Of a stretch of 64,000 nucleotides of DNA, positions 54,089-64,000 are shown piece by piece. Numbering within the stretch: the stretch's first letter is position 1; every line of letters begins with the position of its first letter. The stretch is from Bacteroidia bacterium. Lineage in GTDB: Bacteria; Bacteroidota; Bacteroidia; NS11-12g; UBA9320. The notes beneath the pieces are model-generated. The model had not been told where the DNA came from and ran no database searches. It was given only the letters and a program-made list of their open reading frames with translations. Where the stretch lies: contig CBDCFW010000003.1 in NCBI GenBank assembly GCA_965216465.1, forward strand, positions 224,001-288,000, written 5' to 3'. Position numbers and translations under genes: made by a program.

Positions 54089-54376
54089 TTAGGCAGATGC
54101 TGGTTTGATGTACTTCTTATCGGCGTAAAACGTTCCAAAAGGAATAATTGCGCACAATAGCACGATTGCAAAGCTGCGGTTATCCCACTTCAATCGATCG
54201 CGAAGTACTATAGCAAGAAAGAGGTAAATGATGAATAAAACACCGTGGGGCATGCCTAGGGCTTTTACCCATGAGTCATTGTTAGCTAGATACTTAAGTG
54301 GACTTCCTACAAGAGCAAGAAGGATAAGCGAAATACCTTCTAAGTAGCTTATAATTCTGAAAAAATTGACAATCAT
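54089..54376 (-). CDS. DUF3817 family membrane protein
   Basis: FR...YLEG.S; G..HG.LF..Y; IPFGTF. Confidence 0.88.
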   Translation of the reverse strand: MIVNFFRIISYLEGISLILLALVGSPLKYLANNDSWVKALGMPHGVLFIIYLFLAIVLRDRLKWDNRSFAIVLLCAIIPFGTFYADKKYIKPASA

Positions 54377-55067: not shown

Positions 55068-55799
55068 CTAGTAGATTACCAGCGTTCTGACGGAAATTTT
55101 ATCATCTTGACGAATGCGAACTGCATACAAGCCGGGTTTGAGTTTTCCAAAATCGAGCTTTAGCCTGTTGCTTCCTAAATCTTCAAAAATTTGGAAGCTG
55201 TGCGTTACTCCAAGACCATCAATGAGTTCAATATCCGATTCGGTTATTGGGTTATTAGATTGTATGAATATGATTCCATTTGAAGGGTTTGGGAAAATGT
55301 TGACTTCATATTTAGGAGTGTTAATTGAAGTCGAAACTTTGTGTACTAAAGGAATAAATGGCCTATTGTCTTTTAATCTGTCAACGTAAAGTTCTGCTCT
55401 CAAAGCACGTTTGTCTGTTTGTCTTCCATAGCATTGCGGACTAATACTAAATCCAAGCAAAGCATCGCTGCTGTTTTGATCACTATTAACGAAAAGAATG
55501 TCATTCAATATAAAGTGAGCTCCAGGAACAATGTATTGACCTATTGCTTTTCGAACTTCAGGATAGTCTTCTGGAATCAAATCAAACCAAGTTTGCCAGA
55601 TAATTGTGTCGTCTGGATACAAGGTGTCAGGACCTTGATTGGTGAATAGAAATGAAATTTTCAGATTTACAGGAGATTGAATGGTCTGAAATGGGCTTGG
55701 TTCAATAAACTCCACTTTGCCGTCAATATAACGGTCAATGTACTGAGCGCTTAAATATGGACTTAAGAGGAGCGTTAAAATCGGTATTATTTCTCTCAT
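55068..55799 (-). CDS. T9SS type A secreted protein, IEPSP/TNQGPD family (paralog 3 of 4)
   Basis: Signal peptide; family motifs; FPNPSNG CTD. Confidence 0.8.
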   Translation of the reverse strand: MREIIPILTLLLSPYLSAQYIDRYIDGKVEFIEPSPFQTIQSPVNLKISFLFTNQGPDTLYPDDTIIWQTWFDLIPEDYPEVRKAIGQYIVPGAHFILNDILFVNSDQNSSDALLGFSISPQCYGRQTDKRALRAELYVDRLKDNRPFIPLVHKVSTSINTPKYEVNIFPNPSNGIIFIQSNNPITESDIELIDGLGVTHSFQIFEDLGSNRLKLDFGKLKPGLYAVRIRQDDKISVRTLVIY

Positions 55800-55885: not shown

Positions 55886-56635
55886 TTATTGAATAATAAT
55901 GGGTTTAGATTCAATGTACTTATCAAGCTTGATTCGAATAATGTATAGTCCTGGACTGATGTCGCCGAAATCCAGCTTATAAGTATTGTTCATTTGGGTT
56001 TCAATTGTCCGGCAGTTGTGCTTTACTCCAAGACCATCAATGAGTTCAATACTCCAGTCAACTATTGCTTTATTCGATTGTATGAAAATGACTCCGTTTG
56101 AAGGATTTGGGAAAACGTTGATTTTATTTTCTAAATTCAGAATGGATGCAGAGTTAGGTGCTTTATGAATAAGACGAATTGCTGGTGAATTATCCTTCAT
56201 GTAATCTTCATAAAACTCAGGGTGTAACGATCTCTTGTCTGTCTGTAAACCATATGCTCGTGGTTCAATTTGAAATGTGAACAGCATATTGTCGTTATTG
56301 AATTTACTGTTAATAAAAACTGTATCAAAATATACTAAGTGTTGGTCAGGTGCAACAAAGCTACCGATTGCAACTTTTCTAATTGGAGGTAAAGATTCTT
56401 CTCTCATTGAACTATAGTAATATTGCCAGACTAGTGTGTCATCAGGGTATAAAGTGTCAGGTCCTTGGTTGGTCATTAGGAAGGAGGAAGGTAAGTAAAT
56501 AGGAGACTGGATCTCGGTTAAAGGACTAGGTTCAATAAACTCAATTTTGAGATCAGCATACCGTGGGATGAATACTTGTCCATCAGAATTCAGAAACAGA
56601 AAAATCAAGATGAGGAATATTATATTTCTATGCAT
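55886..56635 (-). CDS. T9SS type A secreted protein, IEPSP/TNQGPD family (paralog 4 of 4)
   Basis: Signal peptide; family motifs; FPNPSNG CTD. Confidence 0.8.
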   Translation of the reverse strand: MHRNIIFLILIFLFLNSDGQVFIPRYADLKIEFIEPSPLTEIQSPIYLPSSFLMTNQGPDTLYPDDTLVWQYYYSSMREESLPPIRKVAIGSFVAPDQHLVYFDTVFINSKFNNDNMLFTFQIEPRAYGLQTDKRSLHPEFYEDYMKDNSPAIRLIHKAPNSASILNLENKINVFPNPSNGVIFIQSNKAIVDWSIELIDGLGVKHNCRTIETQMNNTYKLDFGDISPGLYIIRIKLDKYIESKPIIIQ

Positions 56636-56639
56636 GGTA

Positions 56640-57566
56640 TTATTTTTTTAGTTGGTTAAAATTTTCGTTTTTTTCGTCAATGTCTTTTTGAGTCGAGCAC
56701 TTGCAACATATTTCAATTGGTATTTCGATATGTAGGTCAGGGCATTCATCAGGTGATTTATTTATGCACGGAAGAATAGCTATATTTAATCTATAGCTCT
56801 TGCAACCTTTGGGCACTGAATTATCATCTACTTGTGATTGATCTTGATTATGATAAGTTTTGCAGTGTCTCTGTAAATGTGAAACATTTTCAGATCTACC
56901 CAATCTATATCTTTCCGAAAGTTTAGCCCAACCCAGGTCAACTTCATCTTTTGGAGTGCCTATAGTTATAGAAGTTGTACCACAAAACCCATCCAAATTC
57001 ACTATGGCATCCAACTTAAAGTCCTTGAACGTTCTGCATTTGCGTGTATCAATGGTGTAGATGTCTTCAGGTTTTATAATGTTTAAGGTTGTGGTTGTAC
57101 CTGTTTTCTTACCGAATTGATCTTCTTCAATGATGGTTGTTACCTCAATGCGATGCACATCATCCTCAAATTCGAACCAGTTGTTGTTGAACGAACCGTC
57201 TTCTTCGAGAATCATATCAATAATGTTTACCTTTTTGGGAATGTATTCCATCCGAAGAGAGTCATACCAATTAACTAATGCTGGACCTTTTTGGTGGTCT
57301 CCTAGATCGAGGCCTTCATAATTGTGAGAAATAGAATTTCCTGCAGCGTCGTATAGTTCAATATAGACATAATCGAGATTGTTGCTCGATAAAGCTTGCC
57401 TGAATCGGAAGGATGCATCAAGCACGTTGTAGGAATTTCCATCGAGCTCTATCGACTGGTAGCAGTTTTCGAGCCGAGAGTTTGCGAATCCATCGCGTTG
57501 TGCAAAAGAGTGTAGGGTTATGAAATAGAGGATTAAGCTTGAAGAAAGTTTAATGGCTGTTTTCAT
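56640..57566 (-). CDS. Secreted cysteine-rich hypothetical protein (paralog of 5422..6333)
   Basis: Signal peptide; 10 Cys align with the 5422 ORF. Confidence 0.8.
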   Translation of the reverse strand: MKTAIKLSSSLILYFITLHSFAQRDGFANSRLENCYQSIELDGNSYNVLDASFRFRQALSSNNLDYVYIELYDAAGNSISHNYEGLDLGDHQKGPALVNWYDSLRMEYIPKKVNIIDMILEEDGSFNNNWFEFEDDVHRIEVTTIIEEDQFGKKTGTTTTLNIIKPEDIYTIDTRKCRTFKDFKLDAIVNLDGFCGTTSITIGTPKDEVDLGWAKLSERYRLGRSENVSHLQRHCKTYHNQDQSQVDDNSVPKGCKSYRLNIAILPCINKSPDECPDLHIEIPIEICCKCSTQKDIDEKNENFNQLKK

Positions 57567-57921: not shown

Positions 57922-58018
57922 CAATCTTAACTAGGGGTTAGTTTAGGTTAGTACTAATATTATAGTTAAGGTTATAATTTATAGCCATCCTGTTTTAGGT
58001 TATCGGGATGGCTTTTTT
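57922..58018 (+). ncRNA. Putative sRNA B (carries GGUUAGUUUAGGUUAG)
   Basis: TTTG(57887)-N20-TACTATTG(57911) promoter; terminator AGCCATCCTG/CGGGATGGCT-T run. Confidence 0.55.
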
Positions 58019-58095
58019 GTGCCTGAAACACGCAAGTTTTGTCTGGCGAAGCCCTAAATGAATGATATAAGCTCCACAAATGCTACATTCGGAAA

Positions 58096-58395
58096 GTGTT
58101 AGTCAAAATCTTACAAGACAGAACAGATCGAAAGCCGCCGAATAACTTGTCGTGGTTGGAGTGGTGGAAGCAGCAAAAAAGTGTCAGTACAGCGAATGTC
58201 CGGTGTAGAGCGACAGGCTGTATAAACTACGCTAGTCAAGCTTCACAGGTTATAAGTTGTGATGCTCGCAGCACAGCACGAAGGTGGTATATTGTACCCT
58301 TATGTGCATCGCATATTAAGCAAGAAGACTGTTTTAATGTGCCGCATGGGCAGCTTGAGGGGTATAATGCGTGCACAAAACTAGTTAAGTTATGA
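58096..58395 (+). CDS. Small Cys-rich hypothetical protein (SWL..W...C...GC...WYIVPLC)
   Basis: 99 aa; TACATTCG box 4 nt before GTG. Confidence 0.65.
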   Translation: MLVKILQDRTDRKPPNNLSWLEWWKQQKSVSTANVRCRATGCINYASQASQVISCDARSTARRWYIVPLCASHIKQEDCFNVPHGQLEGYNACTKLVKL

Positions 58396-58547
58396 AATTT
58401 AGTTAACGAAGATGGGCATTACATTGGAATTTGGCGATTTGAGCAAGCTATATTTTGAATAGAATCAGATGTTAATGTATTAATGTTACATGAAATAATG
58501 TGCTTTTATATAACGTAGAGAACACCGCATTAAGATAGGTTTGTAAT

Positions 58548-59477
58548 ATGAGTAGTGAGAGTACAAATTGGGTAGAGTCATTTTACGATGCATTAAAGGA
58601 AAGAGTTAAAAGTCCATATACTGGGGCGTATATATTTTCATGGATAGGGTATAATTATGATTTGTTCATATTATTATTTTTCGTGGATGGAACAAAAAAG
58701 GGATTAGACAAGATTGAAGAAGCTAAAAGAATACTTGGAAATTCATTCATCGCTGATTTGGATAAAGATTTTGGATTTTGGGGAACGTTCTGGATTCCTG
58801 CAGTTGCCGCATTAACATTGATGTTGCTATTTCCAATTATTAATATGGCTGCATCTATGTATAGTAATTGGATGAAGAAGGTTACTCGATCCAAAATATT
58901 AAAGCAAGGGAAGAAGTTTACTGTTTCAGGCGAGGAATATTTTGATAAACTAATGGAAATTCAGAGGTTAAATGATGAAGCAATTGCAGAATCAAAAAGA
59001 GTCCAAGAATTATCAAATATTTGGAAGAAAGAAAAGAAGGAGAGTGAGAGAGTAAAAGATAAGTATATTATGTTGATTAGAGCAGAATCCGCGATTAAGG
59101 AACCCTATCAATTTGCGACAGATGGAATAATTCTAGATCATTATATACGTGGCAAAGAAATAGGTGAACATATGGAAGCACTTAGAACGTTTTATATTTT
59201 GTACGGGGCAATGAAGGGTTTTATAAATAGAGATGAGGAAGTACTGACGTCGATCATATATTCTAAATGGGCTACTAGATTCGAAACTGATGGAATATTT
59301 GTTTATGAAATAGAAACAAAATTAACAGGACGCACAGGATTGGCTAATGTAGTTAGAGTAAATGTATTAAGAGGAACTAGATTTAAGAAGACTGGTTTAG
59401 CTTTGCTAGTCAGAATGTTGATAAAAGAGGAATACCAAGAGATATATAAAAGGGCAAGTTTAAATGATTTGGGATGA
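58548..59477 (+). CDS. Membrane plus coiled-coil hypothetical protein
   Basis: ERVKSP..GA.IFSW...N N-terminus; two TMs; coiled segment. Confidence 0.75.
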   Translation: MSSESTNWVESFYDALKERVKSPYTGAYIFSWIGYNYDLFILLFFVDGTKKGLDKIEEAKRILGNSFIADLDKDFGFWGTFWIPAVAALTLMLLFPIINMAASMYSNWMKKVTRSKILKQGKKFTVSGEEYFDKLMEIQRLNDEAIAESKRVQELSNIWKKEKKESERVKDKYIMLIRAESAIKEPYQFATDGIILDHYIRGKEIGEHMEALRTFYILYGAMKGFINRDEEVLTSIIYSKWATRFETDGIFVYEIETKLTGRTGLANVVRVNVLRGTRFKKTGLALLVRMLIKEEYQEIYKRASLNDLG

Positions 59478-59489
59478 TAATTTTGCGAT

Positions 59490-59771
59490 ATGGATACAAT
59501 AAATAAAGAAGAATTTGCGGCCCTATTTGGAATGATAGGATGGATGTGTAATGAGCTTGCAATGATAAAGGGAATGAATCAAGTCCTGCTAAAAATGATT
59601 GCAACTGACAAGGGTTTTGAATTAGAAAATGTGAAAAAAGAGATAGAGTCTTTTTATGCATCTTACAATTTGATCAGTGCAGACAAGCTAGACCAAATAG
59701 TGAGATATGCAACAGATGAAGATTATAGGAATGAACAAGGTGCCGACTTCTATAAGAAGTTATTTAAGTGA
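59490..59771 (+). CDS. Hypothetical protein
   Basis: 93 aa; TAATTTTG box 4 nt before ATG. Confidence 0.65.
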   Translation: MDTINKEEFAALFGMIGWMCNELAMIKGMNQVLLKMIATDKGFELENVKKEIESFYASYNLISADKLDQIVRYATDEDYRNEQGADFYKKLFK

Positions 59772-59968
59772 TATCAAATACCCGACTTCCTAAAGATCTG
59801 CAGCTGAAAATACGATATCAATTTGTATTTCGGAAACCAGGAGCTTCAGGAGAAAATGACATCATTTAATCTTCTGAACCTCTCATAAATGATTAAGGAA
59901 GTTCTGGATCCACAAACTGTAGAATCAAGATAGGCCCTATAAACAGGGGCAATTTATATATTTGAGTT

Positions 59969-60871
59969 ATGATTATTTGGAAATTACTATTATGGTTGAT
60001 GGAGGCTAGCTCTGAGATTGTGGGAATACTAGGGCAAATGACAAGTGTTGTTTTTTCAACTCTGCTTACTCTTTTTATTGTTTGGTTAAGACAGTTCTAT
60101 GTAAAAAGATATGATGCTCAGAAAGTGGCAAAGGAATTGGAAGAGAAAAGAAGGTACTACTTAAAAATGGCTCGACTAGGTGCCGAAAGTTTAAAGAAAT
60201 ACTCAAAGATTCTTAAAGATAATAGAAACCTGTTCAAACGAATGGCTAGTGGTAAACTTGGAGTGTTTAATACTATGCAAATAAGTGCAATAATTGAATT
60301 AGAAAAAATGGATTTATTGAGATACAATAAGGCATTTAATGTTGTTAATGAAGGTCGAAAAGTTGAAGTTGAAGAGTGTCAAATAAACATTGCCAATCAT
60401 GCCAGATTTATTATTGCGATACATGAAAGATATTTAGAAGAGGTAAAAGAATTTATAAGTGCTTACAACGAACATAGAAAGGAACATGACGAAGAAATTA
60501 GAAGGATGATTGGTTTGGATGAGAATGTTAGAGTCAAAATACAAAAGATGTCACCGACGCGAGAAGAACAACGGTATTTTATGGAAGTTCACGGCATTAT
60601 AGATGAGTATATGAAGGTAGATGAGGAGGTTAGAATTTACAGCTCACAAGAATTATTAGTAAAACCATTATCAGAAGCTTGTATGAAGTATTATTCTTTG
60701 TCTTGGGCATCAGATATGCAAAAGGCAATTGGAAAAAGTAGAGATGCTGATGCCCAAATATTAACCGTGGTCAAAGCTGCTAGTACACAGTCTAAAATAT
60801 ATGCGGATAATGCTACAAATGCTGCTAAGAAGGTAGAAGAAAATATTAAGTTGCTTGAGAGTTTGTTGTAA
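59969..60871 (+). CDS. TM-anchored helical hypothetical protein
   Basis: N-terminal TM; TATATTTG box 4 nt before ATG. Confidence 0.75.
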   Translation: MIIWKLLLWLMEASSEIVGILGQMTSVVFSTLLTLFIVWLRQFYVKRYDAQKVAKELEEKRRYYLKMARLGAESLKKYSKILKDNRNLFKRMASGKLGVFNTMQISAIIELEKMDLLRYNKAFNVVNEGRKVEVEECQINIANHARFIIAIHERYLEEVKEFISAYNEHRKEHDEEIRRMIGLDENVRVKIQKMSPTREEQRYFMEVHGIIDEYMKVDEEVRIYSSQELLVKPLSEACMKYYSLSWASDMQKAIGKSRDADAQILTVVKAASTQSKIYADNATNAAKKVEENIKLLESLL

Positions 60872-60922
60872 TTGGTTAATATTGGCCACATAACAGATCA
60901 AAGATTTAATATCAATAGAACT

Positions 60923-60950
60923 TGTGCCTATAATTTATAGTATGTTCCTA
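60923..60950 (+). other. dif-like XerC/D site, candidate left attachment site
   Basis: TGTGCCTATAA-TTTATA-GTATGTTCCTA versus E. coli dif GGTGCGCATAA-TGTATA-TTATGTTAAAT; 58 bp before rep. Confidence 0.5.
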
Positions 60951-61008: not shown

Positions 61009-62202
61009 TTGATAAAAAAAGAAACTTTACTTGATCATACATACCTTGAAGAGAACACTTTAAAAGTCGCATCAATCGACAGTTTAAAGTTGAGAATCCC
61101 TTTCGAAGAGGTAAAGTTAATAAAAACTGACTTAGACGACAATTGGAAATATCTAAACGACTCCACCGGAGAGATTGACGAGAAGGAATATTTAAAACGA
61201 GCTTACTGGTCAAGAGCCAAAGGAATAGCCACTAAATATGCAGTAGAACACCAAACAATAGAAGGTGGCCACATCAGAAAATACTTGGTAATCCTGGTAA
61301 GTTCTAAAGTTCTCAAAGAACTTTATTTCTATGGCATCAGCAAGAAAACAATCTTCCATCTTTTAAAGGAGATCAATAATCAAAATGTTGTAAATCTTGA
61401 AATGTATCAGCTCCTTCAGGCTGAATGCGTAGATATTGATTTCAAAGTAGATTATGAAATGACAATCCATGAGTTTGAAGGATTAATTGAATTGTCTAAA
61501 CACATGACCATCCCAAAGCAACGCCTTAAAACAGGATATCAAGTTTTCTTGGGAAAAGGTAATAAAGGTATTGCTTGGGGAACACGTCAAACACAATCTC
61601 CAAAAACAAATCCATTCTGGAAACACTACCACAAAGGATTAGAGCTAAAAGAAAAATCCTATGAATTCACTGACGAATACCTAACAGACCAGGTATTTGA
61701 AAACAGATGCCGGACCGAGTTTACCATCAAAAACCGCCAACACTTAAACGCAGTATTCGGAAGTCCGCAAAGTGATTTAAACTATTTGATCAATCTTCCT
61801 CAAGATAAGCTGTTTGCAGCCTTAAATATGTGCATCGATGCACACTTATATCGTCCTGACGGATACAAACCTATTGAAGAACGGACCTATAAAAACCCTG
61901 CTGACACCATCATAAGCAATTTAATCCAGGTAGCAATCATGTCCAAGTTTTCTGAAACACACATCATAGAAATAGCCTTAAATGGAATAACGGACAAACA
62001 TCGAAGAACCAGGCAGAAGAAAAGAGTGCGATTCTTGATCAGGCAACTGGTACATCAGCATCCATCCACACAAAATCAATTGGCCAAGAATAAAGCGGGC
62101 CACGAGTTATATAAATGGCTAACAGACGAAGGTAAGGATAACAGAAGTGTCTCAACGGAGTTAACCCAACAATTACTTTTCTATAAAACGATGTATGACT
62201 AG
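61009..62202 (+). CDS. Rolling-circle replication initiator, Rep_trans/phage CRI-like
   Basis: SIDSLKLRIP; DIDFKVD; WGTR; K.Y.K..E; R.EFTIK in the family order. Confidence 0.7.
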   Translation: MIKKETLLDHTYLEENTLKVASIDSLKLRIPFEEVKLIKTDLDDNWKYLNDSTGEIDEKEYLKRAYWSRAKGIATKYAVEHQTIEGGHIRKYLVILVSSKVLKELYFYGISKKTIFHLLKEINNQNVVNLEMYQLLQAECVDIDFKVDYEMTIHEFEGLIELSKHMTIPKQRLKTGYQVFLGKGNKGIAWGTRQTQSPKTNPFWKHYHKGLELKEKSYEFTDEYLTDQVFENRCRTEFTIKNRQHLNAVFGSPQSDLNYLINLPQDKLFAALNMCIDAHLYRPDGYKPIEERTYKNPADTIISNLIQVAIMSKFSETHIIEIALNGITDKHRRTRQKKRVRFLIRQLVHQHPSTQNQLAKNKAGHELYKWLTDEGKDNRSVSTELTQQLLFYKTMYD

Positions 62203-62359
62203 ACTTGAAAAACTAAAGGCCAAAAGAGCAACTCTCCAGGACTACATAAAAAAGACTGGAAGCACTCAATTTGCAGAAAGGTTATCCAACCTAAATAAGG
62301 CAATATTTTGTCTTGAATGGCTTGAAAACAACCAAAAAATAATTGATGAGCTGATTTAG
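62195..62359 (+). CDS. 54-aa hypothetical protein (not in ORF track)
   Basis: MTRLEKLKAKRATLQDYIKK...DELI; overlaps rep stop by 8 nt. Confidence 0.55.
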   Translation: MTRLEKLKAKRATLQDYIKKTGSTQFAERLSNLNKAIFCLEWLENNQKIIDELI

Positions 62360-62364
62360 GCTCC

Positions 62365-62446
62365 AGGGTCATTTCTAGATAATGACCCTAAGTTGCGTTG
62401 GACCGCAACCACGATGCAAAGCGAGTGGGCGTCCAACCACTTAGGG
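62365..62446. other. Hairpin-rich non-coding segment, candidate replication origin
   Basis: AGGGTCATT/AATGACCCT, CCCTAAGT/ACTTAGGG, GTTGGAC/GTCCAAC and GTTGCG/CGCAAC inverted repeats. Confidence 0.45.
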
Positions 62447-62585
62447 CTAAATCATCCTATACATCTATAATAAACTCAATACTAGTGTGTTACGCTGAAA
62501 TATTACTCAAACCTTCAAAAAAGCCTTGAAGTACATATATGTAATAGCAGATTACATAAGAATTTATTAATAACACATAGCAATT

Positions 62586-63317
62586 ATGGCCGAAATTTTA
62601 AATACCACGGGAGTGGTATCAGCAAAAGCAAAAATCGCAACTTCAGTTATAAAACTGGGTATGACGATTGAAGACCAAACTGCAGGTTTGGCAAAGGCAG
62701 ACTTGGAAAACATTCTAGTAAAAATCATTGATGCAGGAAATGGTTCAAATCCTGTAATCCACAGCGTGGATTTATGGACCTTACTGGAAGAAAGTGCTGA
62801 GACTGTAGGAGTGTTCATGTTGGCAGCTAACAAATTGACTGGAAGTGTTGACCTTGTAGTGGATGAAATGCCATTTAACGCAAGAGAAATTAACTTCCTT
62901 GAAGTTCAATTATCAGGATTGGTTGCAACGCAAACCGTAAAACTTTATGCTATCGATGGATGGGGTAATGATGGAGCATTAAGAAACTTACAGCTCAAAT
63001 CAATTGTAGGAAGTGCAATGAATGACATTAGTTTAATGGGAGTTAAACGCATGATTATTCCAATTTCTAAGATTGACTCTGTAACACTTGATTATCCAGC
63101 TTTAGGCAATCTAAAAGCAAAATCAGTAACCTACACAGAAGAGGAGCTTGAAATCTTACAGCTTGAAGACCCTGGTATTGTTTACCTAAAAGGTAAATCA
63201 GCAACACCACAGTATCTGGTAGAAAACAATTGGATTCTAGCCTGTAACAATGCAGTTAGAGCCAAAGTACAACCTAAAGCTGCTGCGGGAGACTTCAACA
63301 TCCTACTGGACAAGTAA
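62586..63317 (+). CDS. Candidate major capsid protein (beta-rich, possible small double jelly-roll)
   Basis: 243 aa; no signal peptide or TM; alternating hydrophobic beta pattern; first gene of the structural-looking block; fold is inference only. Confidence 0.5.
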   Translation: MAEILNTTGVVSAKAKIATSVIKLGMTIEDQTAGLAKADLENILVKIIDAGNGSNPVIHSVDLWTLLEESAETVGVFMLAANKLTGSVDLVVDEMPFNAREINFLEVQLSGLVATQTVKLYAIDGWGNDGALRNLQLKSIVGSAMNDISLMGVKRMIIPISKIDSVTLDYPALGNLKAKSVTYTEEELEILQLEDPGIVYLKGKSATPQYLVENNWILACNNAVRAKVQPKAAAGDFNILLDK

Positions 63318-63412
63318 TGGCACTCAAATTCATTTACAAAACCAAAGCACAGCGGCGTAAGATTTTACGCAACATTGCTTTAAGCAAGAAGAAAGGAAAT
63401 GGGAAAGGGTAG
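63317..63412 (+). CDS. 31-aa highly basic peptide (not in ORF track)
   Basis: MALKFIYKTKAQRRKILRNIALSKKKGNGKG; TAATG coupling to upstream gene. Confidence 0.5.
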   Translation: MALKFIYKTKAQRRKILRNIALSKKKGNGKG

Positions 63413-63803
63413 ATTAAAAAAATGGTTCAAGGAAAAAGGAGCTAAGAAGATTTTAGGTGGCCTGGAGAAATTCGGGACACTTATTCCTGGAGTGGGTGGA
63501 ATTGTTTCTACTGGAGCTGCTCAATTAAAAGAGCGCTTAGGCGACAAGGAAGCACAAAAAGCAATGGCAGCAACGTACGCAGGTGCGGTTGCTGAATCAG
63601 TGGACAACGCTCAAGGAATAGTATCTAGACAAGGCTCATTTGAAGAACAAGTTGAGATGGAAGCAAAAAAGCAGAGAATCAAAAGAATTTTAGGACAAGT
63701 AGGTATGGTGTTAGCGGGGCTAACTGTCGTACTTATTCCAATTATTCTAATTGTTAGATCACGCAAACGAAAAGGTTTTGCACGTAAAAAAAGAAGAAGA
63801 TAA
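63399..63803 (+). CDS. Putative virion membrane protein
   Basis: Basic N-terminus; IPGVGGIV amphipathic segment; C-terminal TM then RSRKRKGFARKKRRR. Confidence 0.6.
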   Translation: MGKGRLKKWFKEKGAKKILGGLEKFGTLIPGVGGIVSTGAAQLKERLGDKEAQKAMAATYAGAVAESVDNAQGIVSRQGSFEEQVEMEAKKQRIKRILGQVGMVLAGLTVVLIPIILIVRSRKRKGFARKKRRR

Positions 63804-63805
63804 TC

Positions 63806-64000
63806 ATGTTGAAATTAGACGGAAAAAACAACGGAACACTGTGGCTTGAAGAGAAAGACCGCAAGGTGTTCAAAGGAGACAGAAAAGGAGAAACTTACCA
63901 GTGCTTTGAAGGCACAATCGACACTGGAGGCGGTAAAATGATTACAATAAAAATGTATTCAAACACCGATCCAGTAGATAAAGACGGTAAGACATTACTG
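63806..64000 (+). CDS. Partial ORF, possibly ssDNA-binding protein (3' truncated)
   Basis: MLKLDGKNNGTLWLEEKDRKVFKGDRKGETYQCFEGTID... open to window end; starts 2 nt after previous stop. Confidence 0.55.
   Translation, partial: MLKLDGKNNGTLWLEEKDRKVFKGDRKGETYQCFEGTIDTGGGKMITIKMYSNTDPVDKDGKTLL

Follow-up and report, generated by a model that had tools for sequence, protein, structure and literature searches.

The stretch analyzed here (hereafter the window) comprises 64,000 nucleotides (nt) of contig CBDCFW010000003.1 (positions 224,001 to 288,000) of a Bacteroidia bacterium. Near its right end, an open reading frame (ORF) of 243 amino acids (aa) runs on the + strand from an ATG at 62586 to a stop codon ending at 63317, and this ORF (62586..63317) very probably encodes the major capsid protein (MCP) of a small integrated phage of the phiCjT23/Cellulophaga phi18:4 type. 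By sequence profile, its product is a very divergent homologue of P5, the major capsid protein of phiCjT23. Passages of PMC9719478 describe phiCjT23 as having a 7,642-nt circular single-stranded DNA (ssDNA) genome, an inner membrane and pseudo T=21 symmetry, and they rank P5 (239 residues) as the smallest of the known double jelly-roll (DJR) capsid proteins. This kind of phage is already known; what is new is a deep-branching member of it.

The capsid protein and its family

An earlier note, written from the letters of the window, had described the ORF as 243 aa long at 62586..63317. The ORF list confirmed this and places it on the + strand with an ATG start. As M1 is the sole invariant column of an 83-row family alignment, the start codon is supported, and the ORF is more than a chance one, since a profile search recovers 94 cluster representatives at E <= 1e-3. 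The note was also right in seeing neither signal peptide nor transmembrane helix. The N-terminus is not hydrophobic, and the highest 19-residue Kyte-Doolittle mean (1.45, at residue 74) lies below the usual transmembrane level and well below the ~2.9 reached in the membrane ORFs adjoining the capsid gene, so that neither feature is indicated. The size of about 240 aa which the note gave for the phiCjT23 capsid protein agrees with the length given in PMC9719478.

The link to P5 takes the form of profile homology. A first profile (A1) was built from four sequences, namely the capsid ORF and its three nearest relatives, among them MCP2, a 245-aa protein whose gene (L002 16432-17169; L002 coordinates equal window coordinates minus 56000) lies 9.8 kb further downstream on the genome. 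The 94 representatives mentioned above were retrieved by A1 from 1.84 billion cluster representatives, 32 of them at E <= 1e-10 and three at <= 1e-30, and most of them (84) have lengths of 230-270 aa. The 83-row alignment (A2) consists of the query, P0002 and 81 of the 94 hits; the 13 hits left out are P0019 (a fragment), P0094 (611 aa, multi-stretch), P0085 (a 161-aa piece) and ten long, partial or weak rows (P0054, P0064, P0073, P0075, P0083, P0084, P0087, P0091, P0092, and P0093). Searched against PDB, the A2 profile matched 7zzz, 'Major capsid protein P5' (239 aa), at E 3.2e-28, with positions 1-234 aligned to 1-231, and the second-best match had an E-value of 0.52.

An independent chain of pairwise BLASTP comparisons supports the same link. 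The capsid ORF is 25% identical to MCP2 (E 1e-11), which in turn matches phiCjT23 gp05 (E 1.2e-4, 23.6% identity over 229 aa) and gp04 of Cellulophaga phage phi18:4 (E 6.8e-7), the latter being annotated in its record as a structural protein from MS/MS proteomics. The Cellulophaga ssDNA phages phi18:4, phi12:2, phi12a:1, phi48:1, and Omtje_1-5 all belong to the same capsid family through their gp4 'structural protein' (241 aa, phrog_20547), and 24 of the 83 family members match phrog_20547, 'virion structural protein'. Closer to the capsid ORF, a word-indexed search of 5.8 billion proteins retrieved only two homologues (59-61% identical), one of which comes from a Bacteroidetes metagenome-assembled genome.

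The structural model agrees with this assignment. AlphaFold2, given the A2 alignment and no templates, produced a monomer with a mean pLDDT of 94.1 and a pTM of 0.89, in which the alternating hydrophobic segments pointed out by the earlier note are beta-strands (19 strands and four short helices in total). In the model secondary structure, residues 1-127 (62586..62966, + strand) form about nine strands and one helix (63-73), corresponding to a first jelly roll (V1), and residues 128-243 (62967..63317, + strand, including the stop codon) form about ten strands and one helix (185-193), corresponding to a second (V2). Alignments to single jelly rolls stop at residues 125-130; in phiCjT23, V1 extends from M1 to T126 according to a passage of PMC9719478. 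In the model, the chain of ~240 aa holds two tandem upright eight-stranded jelly rolls without towers, and the capsid protein is a minimal upright double jelly-roll, with V1 at about 1-127, V2 at about 128-243, one short helix in each and no tower. Foldseek placed the phiCjT23 capsid protein first among PDB structures (E 6.4e-16, TM 0.80/0.82, rmsd 3.0), followed by capsid proteins of FLiP, PR772/PRD1 (P3), STIV, PM2 (P2), and PBCV-1. In BFVD, capsid proteins account for most of the named rows within the top ten, and proteins of other kinds appear in some rows further down.

When three copies were predicted together, they formed a ring in which V1 of each chain is packed on V2 of the next, V2 residues 168-223 making up one face of the predicted interface. 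This prediction scored 0.83, versus 0.00 for the best of three controls, with a contact agreement between runs of at least 85% and a partner pLDDT of at least 88; in calibration, 20 of 30 solved one-chain pairs attained this mark, as did one of 23 solved single chains. By analogy with phiCjT23, the capsid protein may assemble head-to-tail into pseudo-hexameric trimers. These would be the tiles of an icosahedral shell, with a lipid membrane inside it that encloses a circular ssDNA genome. Monomer and trimer models, profile homology to P5 and phage context all point in the direction taken by the earlier note, which had proposed a compact double jelly-roll capsid protein; neither of the outcomes it had named as contrary, a different fold or a confident hit to a cellular enzyme, was obtained, as the fold is jelly-roll and profile homology is to P5 only.

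Prophage genes and the tandem neighbour

According to passages of PMC9719478, Flavobacterium genomes carry prophages of ~6-8 kb in which a replication initiator (Rep) gene is followed by the MCP gene, with 28-nt dif sites implying XerC/XerD. Similarly, the capsid gene described here lies just downstream of a Rep gene in a dif-flanked prophage (prophage 1) which extends from 60923 to window-equivalent 69214 and whose 8,292 bp slightly exceed the ~6,000-8,000 bp range of that source. The order of its genes (Rep, small ORF, spacer, capsid, membrane protein, small ORFs, lysin) is the same as in phiCjT23 and phi18:4. In the phiCjT23 record (ON067806.1), Rep gp03 (1,194 nt) is followed by gp04 (168 nt), a 106-nt spacer, the MCP gene gp05, gp06, and gp07.

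The Rep gene of prophage 1 (61009..62202, + strand) encodes a putative rolling-circle initiator of 397 aa, which is Rep_trans-like but very divergent and in which Y207 is a candidate catalytic tyrosine. It stays below the Pfam Rep_trans threshold, a difference from phiCjT23: no Pfam family was found at E <= 0.1 and the PF02486 model was not matched. Nor did a six-sequence Rep profile find any Rep in PDB, or tblastn any match among 50,697 phage records. An assignment as HUH protein was considered and rejected, as a comparison of its profile with the PF23343 Reps from two further prophages gave nothing. Replication would most likely be of the rolling-circle type, started by this protein.

A small ORF of 54 aa (62195..62359, + strand) overlaps the end of the Rep gene and holds the position of phiCjT23 gp04 (55 aa) and phi18:4 gp3 (73 aa), with no sequence similarity detected. 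It is followed by the spacer (62360..62585, + strand), which carries an inverted repeat right behind the 54-aa ORF and whose sole listed ORF is 43 aa long with a TTG start (62398-62529). The capsid gene begins directly 3' of this spacer, as the earlier note had stated; the spacer measures 226 bp, versus ~100 bp at the same place in phiCjT23 and phi18:4. Downstream of the capsid gene, a 134-aa protein (63399..63803, + strand) has a single C-terminal transmembrane helix (19-residue Kyte-Doolittle mean of 2.88 at residue 101) and then an Arg/Lys-rich tail, and is a candidate internal-membrane protein, in the position of phiCjT23 gp06 and phi18:4 gp5. The next ORF (86 aa; 63806..64000 and on to window-equivalent 64066, + strand) is the positional equivalent of phiCjT23 gp07, and its best E-value against reference phage proteins is 0.18. 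Further on come, in order, a 63-aa ORF, a 218-aa lysin with GH108 and PG_binding_3 domains (L002 8250-8906), two membrane ORFs, and a 156-aa ORF with a hydrophobic N-terminus, for which the ESM Atlas returned unnamed clusters and weak fimbrial leads only. Small ORFs end the series, one of which encodes a SEC-C-motif protein; a PADLOC scan for defence genes among ten accessory ORFs gave SEC-C-motif hits only.

The Cellulophaga phages share the gene order of prophage 1 in genomes of 6.5 kb with a PF02486 Rep. They differ from it in being lytic isolates with a PF01832 glucosaminidase as lysin, whereas prophage 1 is integrated and carries the GH108 and PG_binding_3 type; nor does the capsid ORF match them directly by BLAST or through PHROG. 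With respect to phiCjT23, the lysin is again of another type, and no counterpart of the 283-aa spike was recognised in prophage 1. The record of phi18:4 (KC821628.1) has Microviridae in its taxonomy line, yet its gp04 belongs to the phiCjT23 DJR family (40% identity to a phiCjT23-like prophage capsid protein).

Prophage 1 is followed in tandem by a second, distantly related element of the same type (prophage 2), which contains Rep2 (416 aa), MCP2, a membrane protein, a Peptidase_M15 lysin, and three small ORFs on the minus strand. The Reps of the two prophages are 30% identical and their capsid proteins 25%. In prophage 2, a 135-aa protein, the counterpart of the 134-aa one, matches phi18:4 gp5, annotated as a structural protein from MS/MS proteomics (E 2.5e-5), and a 124-aa protein, the counterpart of the 86-aa ORF, matches phiCjT23 gp07 (E 7e-5) and phi18:4 gp6 (E 1e-3). 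The lysins of the tandem prophages are unrelated (GH108 and PG_binding_3 versus Peptidase_M15_3, L002 18313-18837), and the PF01832 lysin of phi18:4 represents a third type.

Both prophages also carry a 55-nt repeat, located between convergent genes, though their proteins are only 25-30% identical. Its four copies (L002 3768-3822, 11154-11208, 11242-11296, and 15082-15136) show 69-100% identity, the first one (window 59768-59822) being located in the segment left of prophage 1. The repeat is built of two GATATCAAA words ~43 nt apart around a short palindrome and could be an origin or operator; when folded as ssDNA, the copies gave no convincing hairpin (z-scores +0.19 to -2.75).

dif-like sites and a prophage-free variant

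A perfect 28-nt dif-like site, TTAGCCTATAATTTATATTATGTTAACC, is found at window-equivalent 76585, and its 24-nt core occurs once in the 3.23-Mb genome. The left end of prophage 1 (60923..60950, + strand) is a degenerate dif-like site in which a 14-nt word, GCCTATAATTTATA, is kept and the right arm is degenerate. This word is equivalent to the XerC arm plus the central region of the dif-like site, and copies of it with degenerate right arms are located at 60926 and 69218, 83 and 132 bp 5' of the Rep genes. The dif-like copies thus define two prophages, prophage 1 at 60923-69214 and prophage 2 at window-equivalent 69215-76584 (7,370 bp), the latter being followed by the perfect dif site. A weaker copy is present at 57970.

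Two comparisons bear on integration at this site. First, genome G331, from the same genus, has no capsid homologue and carries the identical dif 24-mer without a prophage, directly between a homologue of the window gene 54089-54376 and TPR/gyrA genes. Second, a comparison with metagenomes, which used contigs only, found the prophage in contigs of four public runs, all from one study. One of these runs, X2, contains, in addition to prophage-bearing contigs, a contig of 6,420 nt which joins window 60925 to window-equivalent 76588 (L026 1925 to 17588). It skips exactly 15,662 bp, that is, 8,292 plus 7,370, and 14 letters are common at the joint, inside GCCTATAATTTATA. The 15,662-bp absence is the signature of recombination inside the shared dif core. 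A second joint was observed downstream of dif (228 skipped, with 55 letters between), together with several loose ends.

Pfam scans detected no integrase among the scanned ORFs of either prophage, and the four tyrosine recombinase genes of the genome (two of them coding for 304-306 aa) are all located on other contigs. As the prophages lie in tandem at the chromosomal dif without an integrase of their own, their integration and loss are most likely carried out by the host XerC/XerD, and this copy may be active today. Along the contig, the cumulative GC skew keeps rising and flattens near the site with no sign change, and thus argues neither for nor against dif being located at the terminus.

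This arrangement resembles that of integrative mobile elements exploiting Xer (IMEX), for example CTXphi, for which host XerC/XerD are the agents of integration and loss. Shared features are the lack of an own integrase, the tandem prophages at the chromosomal dif, the precise loss variant, and the dif-like site flanking each element, which keeps one arm and the central region. Unlike the filamentous inovirus IMEX, the element here would be an icosahedral DJR phage, with Xer dependence probable from its arrangement. The comparison with CTXphi is one that passages of PMC9719478 draw.

The surroundings of the site also deserve description. To the left of prophage 1, a 3-kb segment (57970-60922), with the weak dif-like site on its left, carries four ORFs on the + strand (99, 309, 93, and 300 aa), and for one of them there is a match to phrog_4780 (E 1.1e-10). 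The prophage-free contig retains this segment, which therefore lies outside prophage 1 and may be what is left of an earlier element integrated at dif. Further left, 55068-55799 and 55886-56635 (both on the minus strand) encode two paralogous proteins of ~245 aa, the second with a type IX secretion system (T9SS) C-terminal sorting domain, and a 308-aa ORF (56640-57566) comes next; with minimum values of 70 aa and 40% identity, tblastx gave no match to this stretch at the corresponding locus of G331. Two distant genomes of the class also have the capsid-family prophage next to genes for a TPR protein and gyrA (L012 1756-5604, L013 2073-4484), and the dif neighbourhood therefore seems to be conserved across families.

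Distribution, alternatives and implications

A six-frame search detected the capsid family in five of 400 other genomes of the class. One genome of the same genus carries a capsid orthologue 62% identical to the ORF, with the same Rep type, the unclassified Rep_trans-like one. Two genomes of other families carry Reps that match PF23343 (REP_ORF2-G2P; L012 10560-11609, L013 10424-11464). Finally, two genomes of one genus encode capsid proteins close to that of phiCjT23, one of which is 81% identical to gp05 and 38-40% identical to the structural proteins of the Cellulophaga phages; the Reps of this pair match PF02486, with a score over the Pfam cut-off in one genome and slightly under it in the other (L014 8141-9424, L015 8478-9659). 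At least three replication-initiator types thus travel with the capsid family, and these differing initiators suggest exchange of the replication module. The genomes with phiCjT23-like copies are related to the present host at the level of the class and not of the order, which places this host in another order.

In a FastTree phylogeny of 89 rows (midpoint-rooted for drawing only), phiCjT23, phi18:4, and the two phiCjT23-like prophages form one small clade within a half of 46 rows. Both capsid proteins of the genome studied here fall in the other half (43 rows), which is without a cultured member, and the split has an SH-like support of 97.

Several results weigh against identifying 62586-63317 as the capsid gene of a phiCjT23-type phage. 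Searched alone, the ORF matched no Pfam or NCBIfam family, retrieved nothing from PDB with phmmer and nothing from the 50,697 phage records with tblastn (the same being true, in the latter search, of P0005, its nearest outside relative), and did not match phrog_20547, its best PHROG match being phrog_18435 with an E-value of only 0.029. Against the relative of P5 that is 81% identical to it, BLASTP gave an E-value of 0.13, and a pattern search of viral contigs with the four-row alignment matched 38 stretches, none of which was a relative. The A1 profile did not reach P5 in PDB; the link between the ORF and P5 therefore takes two iterations and is, at the sequence level, indirect, with pairwise searches failing and an identity of only 15-17% in structural alignment. 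As solved phiCjT23 trimers exist, the trimer score, calibrated on two copies and applied to three, may reflect likeness and is no proof of assembly. In prophage 1, phiCjT23 gp13 has no match among the ORFs, no homologue of spike size (283 aa) was recognised and no penton protein was identified, so that the set of virion genes may lack members or follow a different design. Lastly, the prophage-free joint is a single contig with a depth of 3.26 from one study.

Some of these points would also fit a true capsid homologue residing in a defective or domesticated prophage remnant, in which case the protein would be a relic or have been repurposed. Besides the unrecognised spike and penton and the viral contig search without close relatives, the two prophages are absent together as one block, not singly, in the sole informative contig. 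We nevertheless regard this explanation as rather unlikely, because the prophage ORFs are closely packed and for the most part on the same strand, confidence in the capsid model is high, the same-genus orthologue is full-length with the same gene order, and the precise presence/absence at dif cores shows that the recombination sites work or worked recently. A cellular protein sharing the DJR-like fold, such as a glycosidase of the DUF2961/GH172 type or a PNGase F-like lectin or enzyme, is largely refuted and may be set aside as extremely improbable. Such enzymes do appear in the structure comparison, but with lower scores (10.3 for DUF2961 and GH172, 6.6 for PNGase F), 13 Z units below phiCjT23 P5 and 4-5 below other minimal capsid proteins, and they have 310-375 residues versus 243. 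Moreover, profile homology leads only to P5, the family includes the Cellulophaga phage protein whose annotation as structural comes from MS/MS proteomics, and the gene is found with Rep and lysin genes within a dif-flanked mobile element.

Very improbable too is a prophage of the FLiP lineage (Finnlakeviridae) or of a PM2-like corticovirus, whose genome is double-stranded DNA (dsDNA) in PM2 (passage of PMC9719478), rather than of the phiCjT23 lineage. Sequences like FLiP, phiCjT23, and phi48:2 occur in Bacteroidota genomes, as stated in passages of PMC13269007. The FLiP MCP (PDB 5oac, 310 residues) and PM2 P2 (PDB 2vvf, 269 residues) are both larger, much less similar to the capsid ORF than P5 is, and missed by the profile, and prophage 1 has neither a capsid protein near FLiP gp8 nor a FLiP-like genome of ~9.2 kb.

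Within the phiCjT23 type, we tentatively raise the idea that prophage 1, together with its relative from the same genus, stands for a deep-branching lineage of membrane-containing ssDNA phages which is uncultured and might rank as a family, although the odds are at present against it. If so, the lineage would be set apart by a host order other than that of all cultured members and by an initiator too far from Rep_trans for family models, and its vertex architecture may differ, as no spike homologue was found. None of the literature titles named a divergent non-Flavobacterium lineage, and the prophage lists of PMC9719478 may already include such hosts. In addition, the tandem members, 25% identical in capsid protein and lost as a block, could be in a co-mobilisation or helper-dependent relationship.

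The locus leaves unchanged the picture of what phiCjT23-type phages are. Together with FLiP, phiCjT23 is one of the only structurally characterised ssDNA viruses with a DJR capsid, otherwise a mark of the dsDNA PRD1-adenovirus lineage. Cultured phages represent a small part of the P5 family: it has 94 representative clusters, the cultured phages occupy one small clade, and its range extends beyond the order hosting phiCjT23-like prophages. Studies of integration could draw on the two distant relatives that occur naturally in one lysogen at this locus, together with a clean dif-based presence/absence polymorphism.
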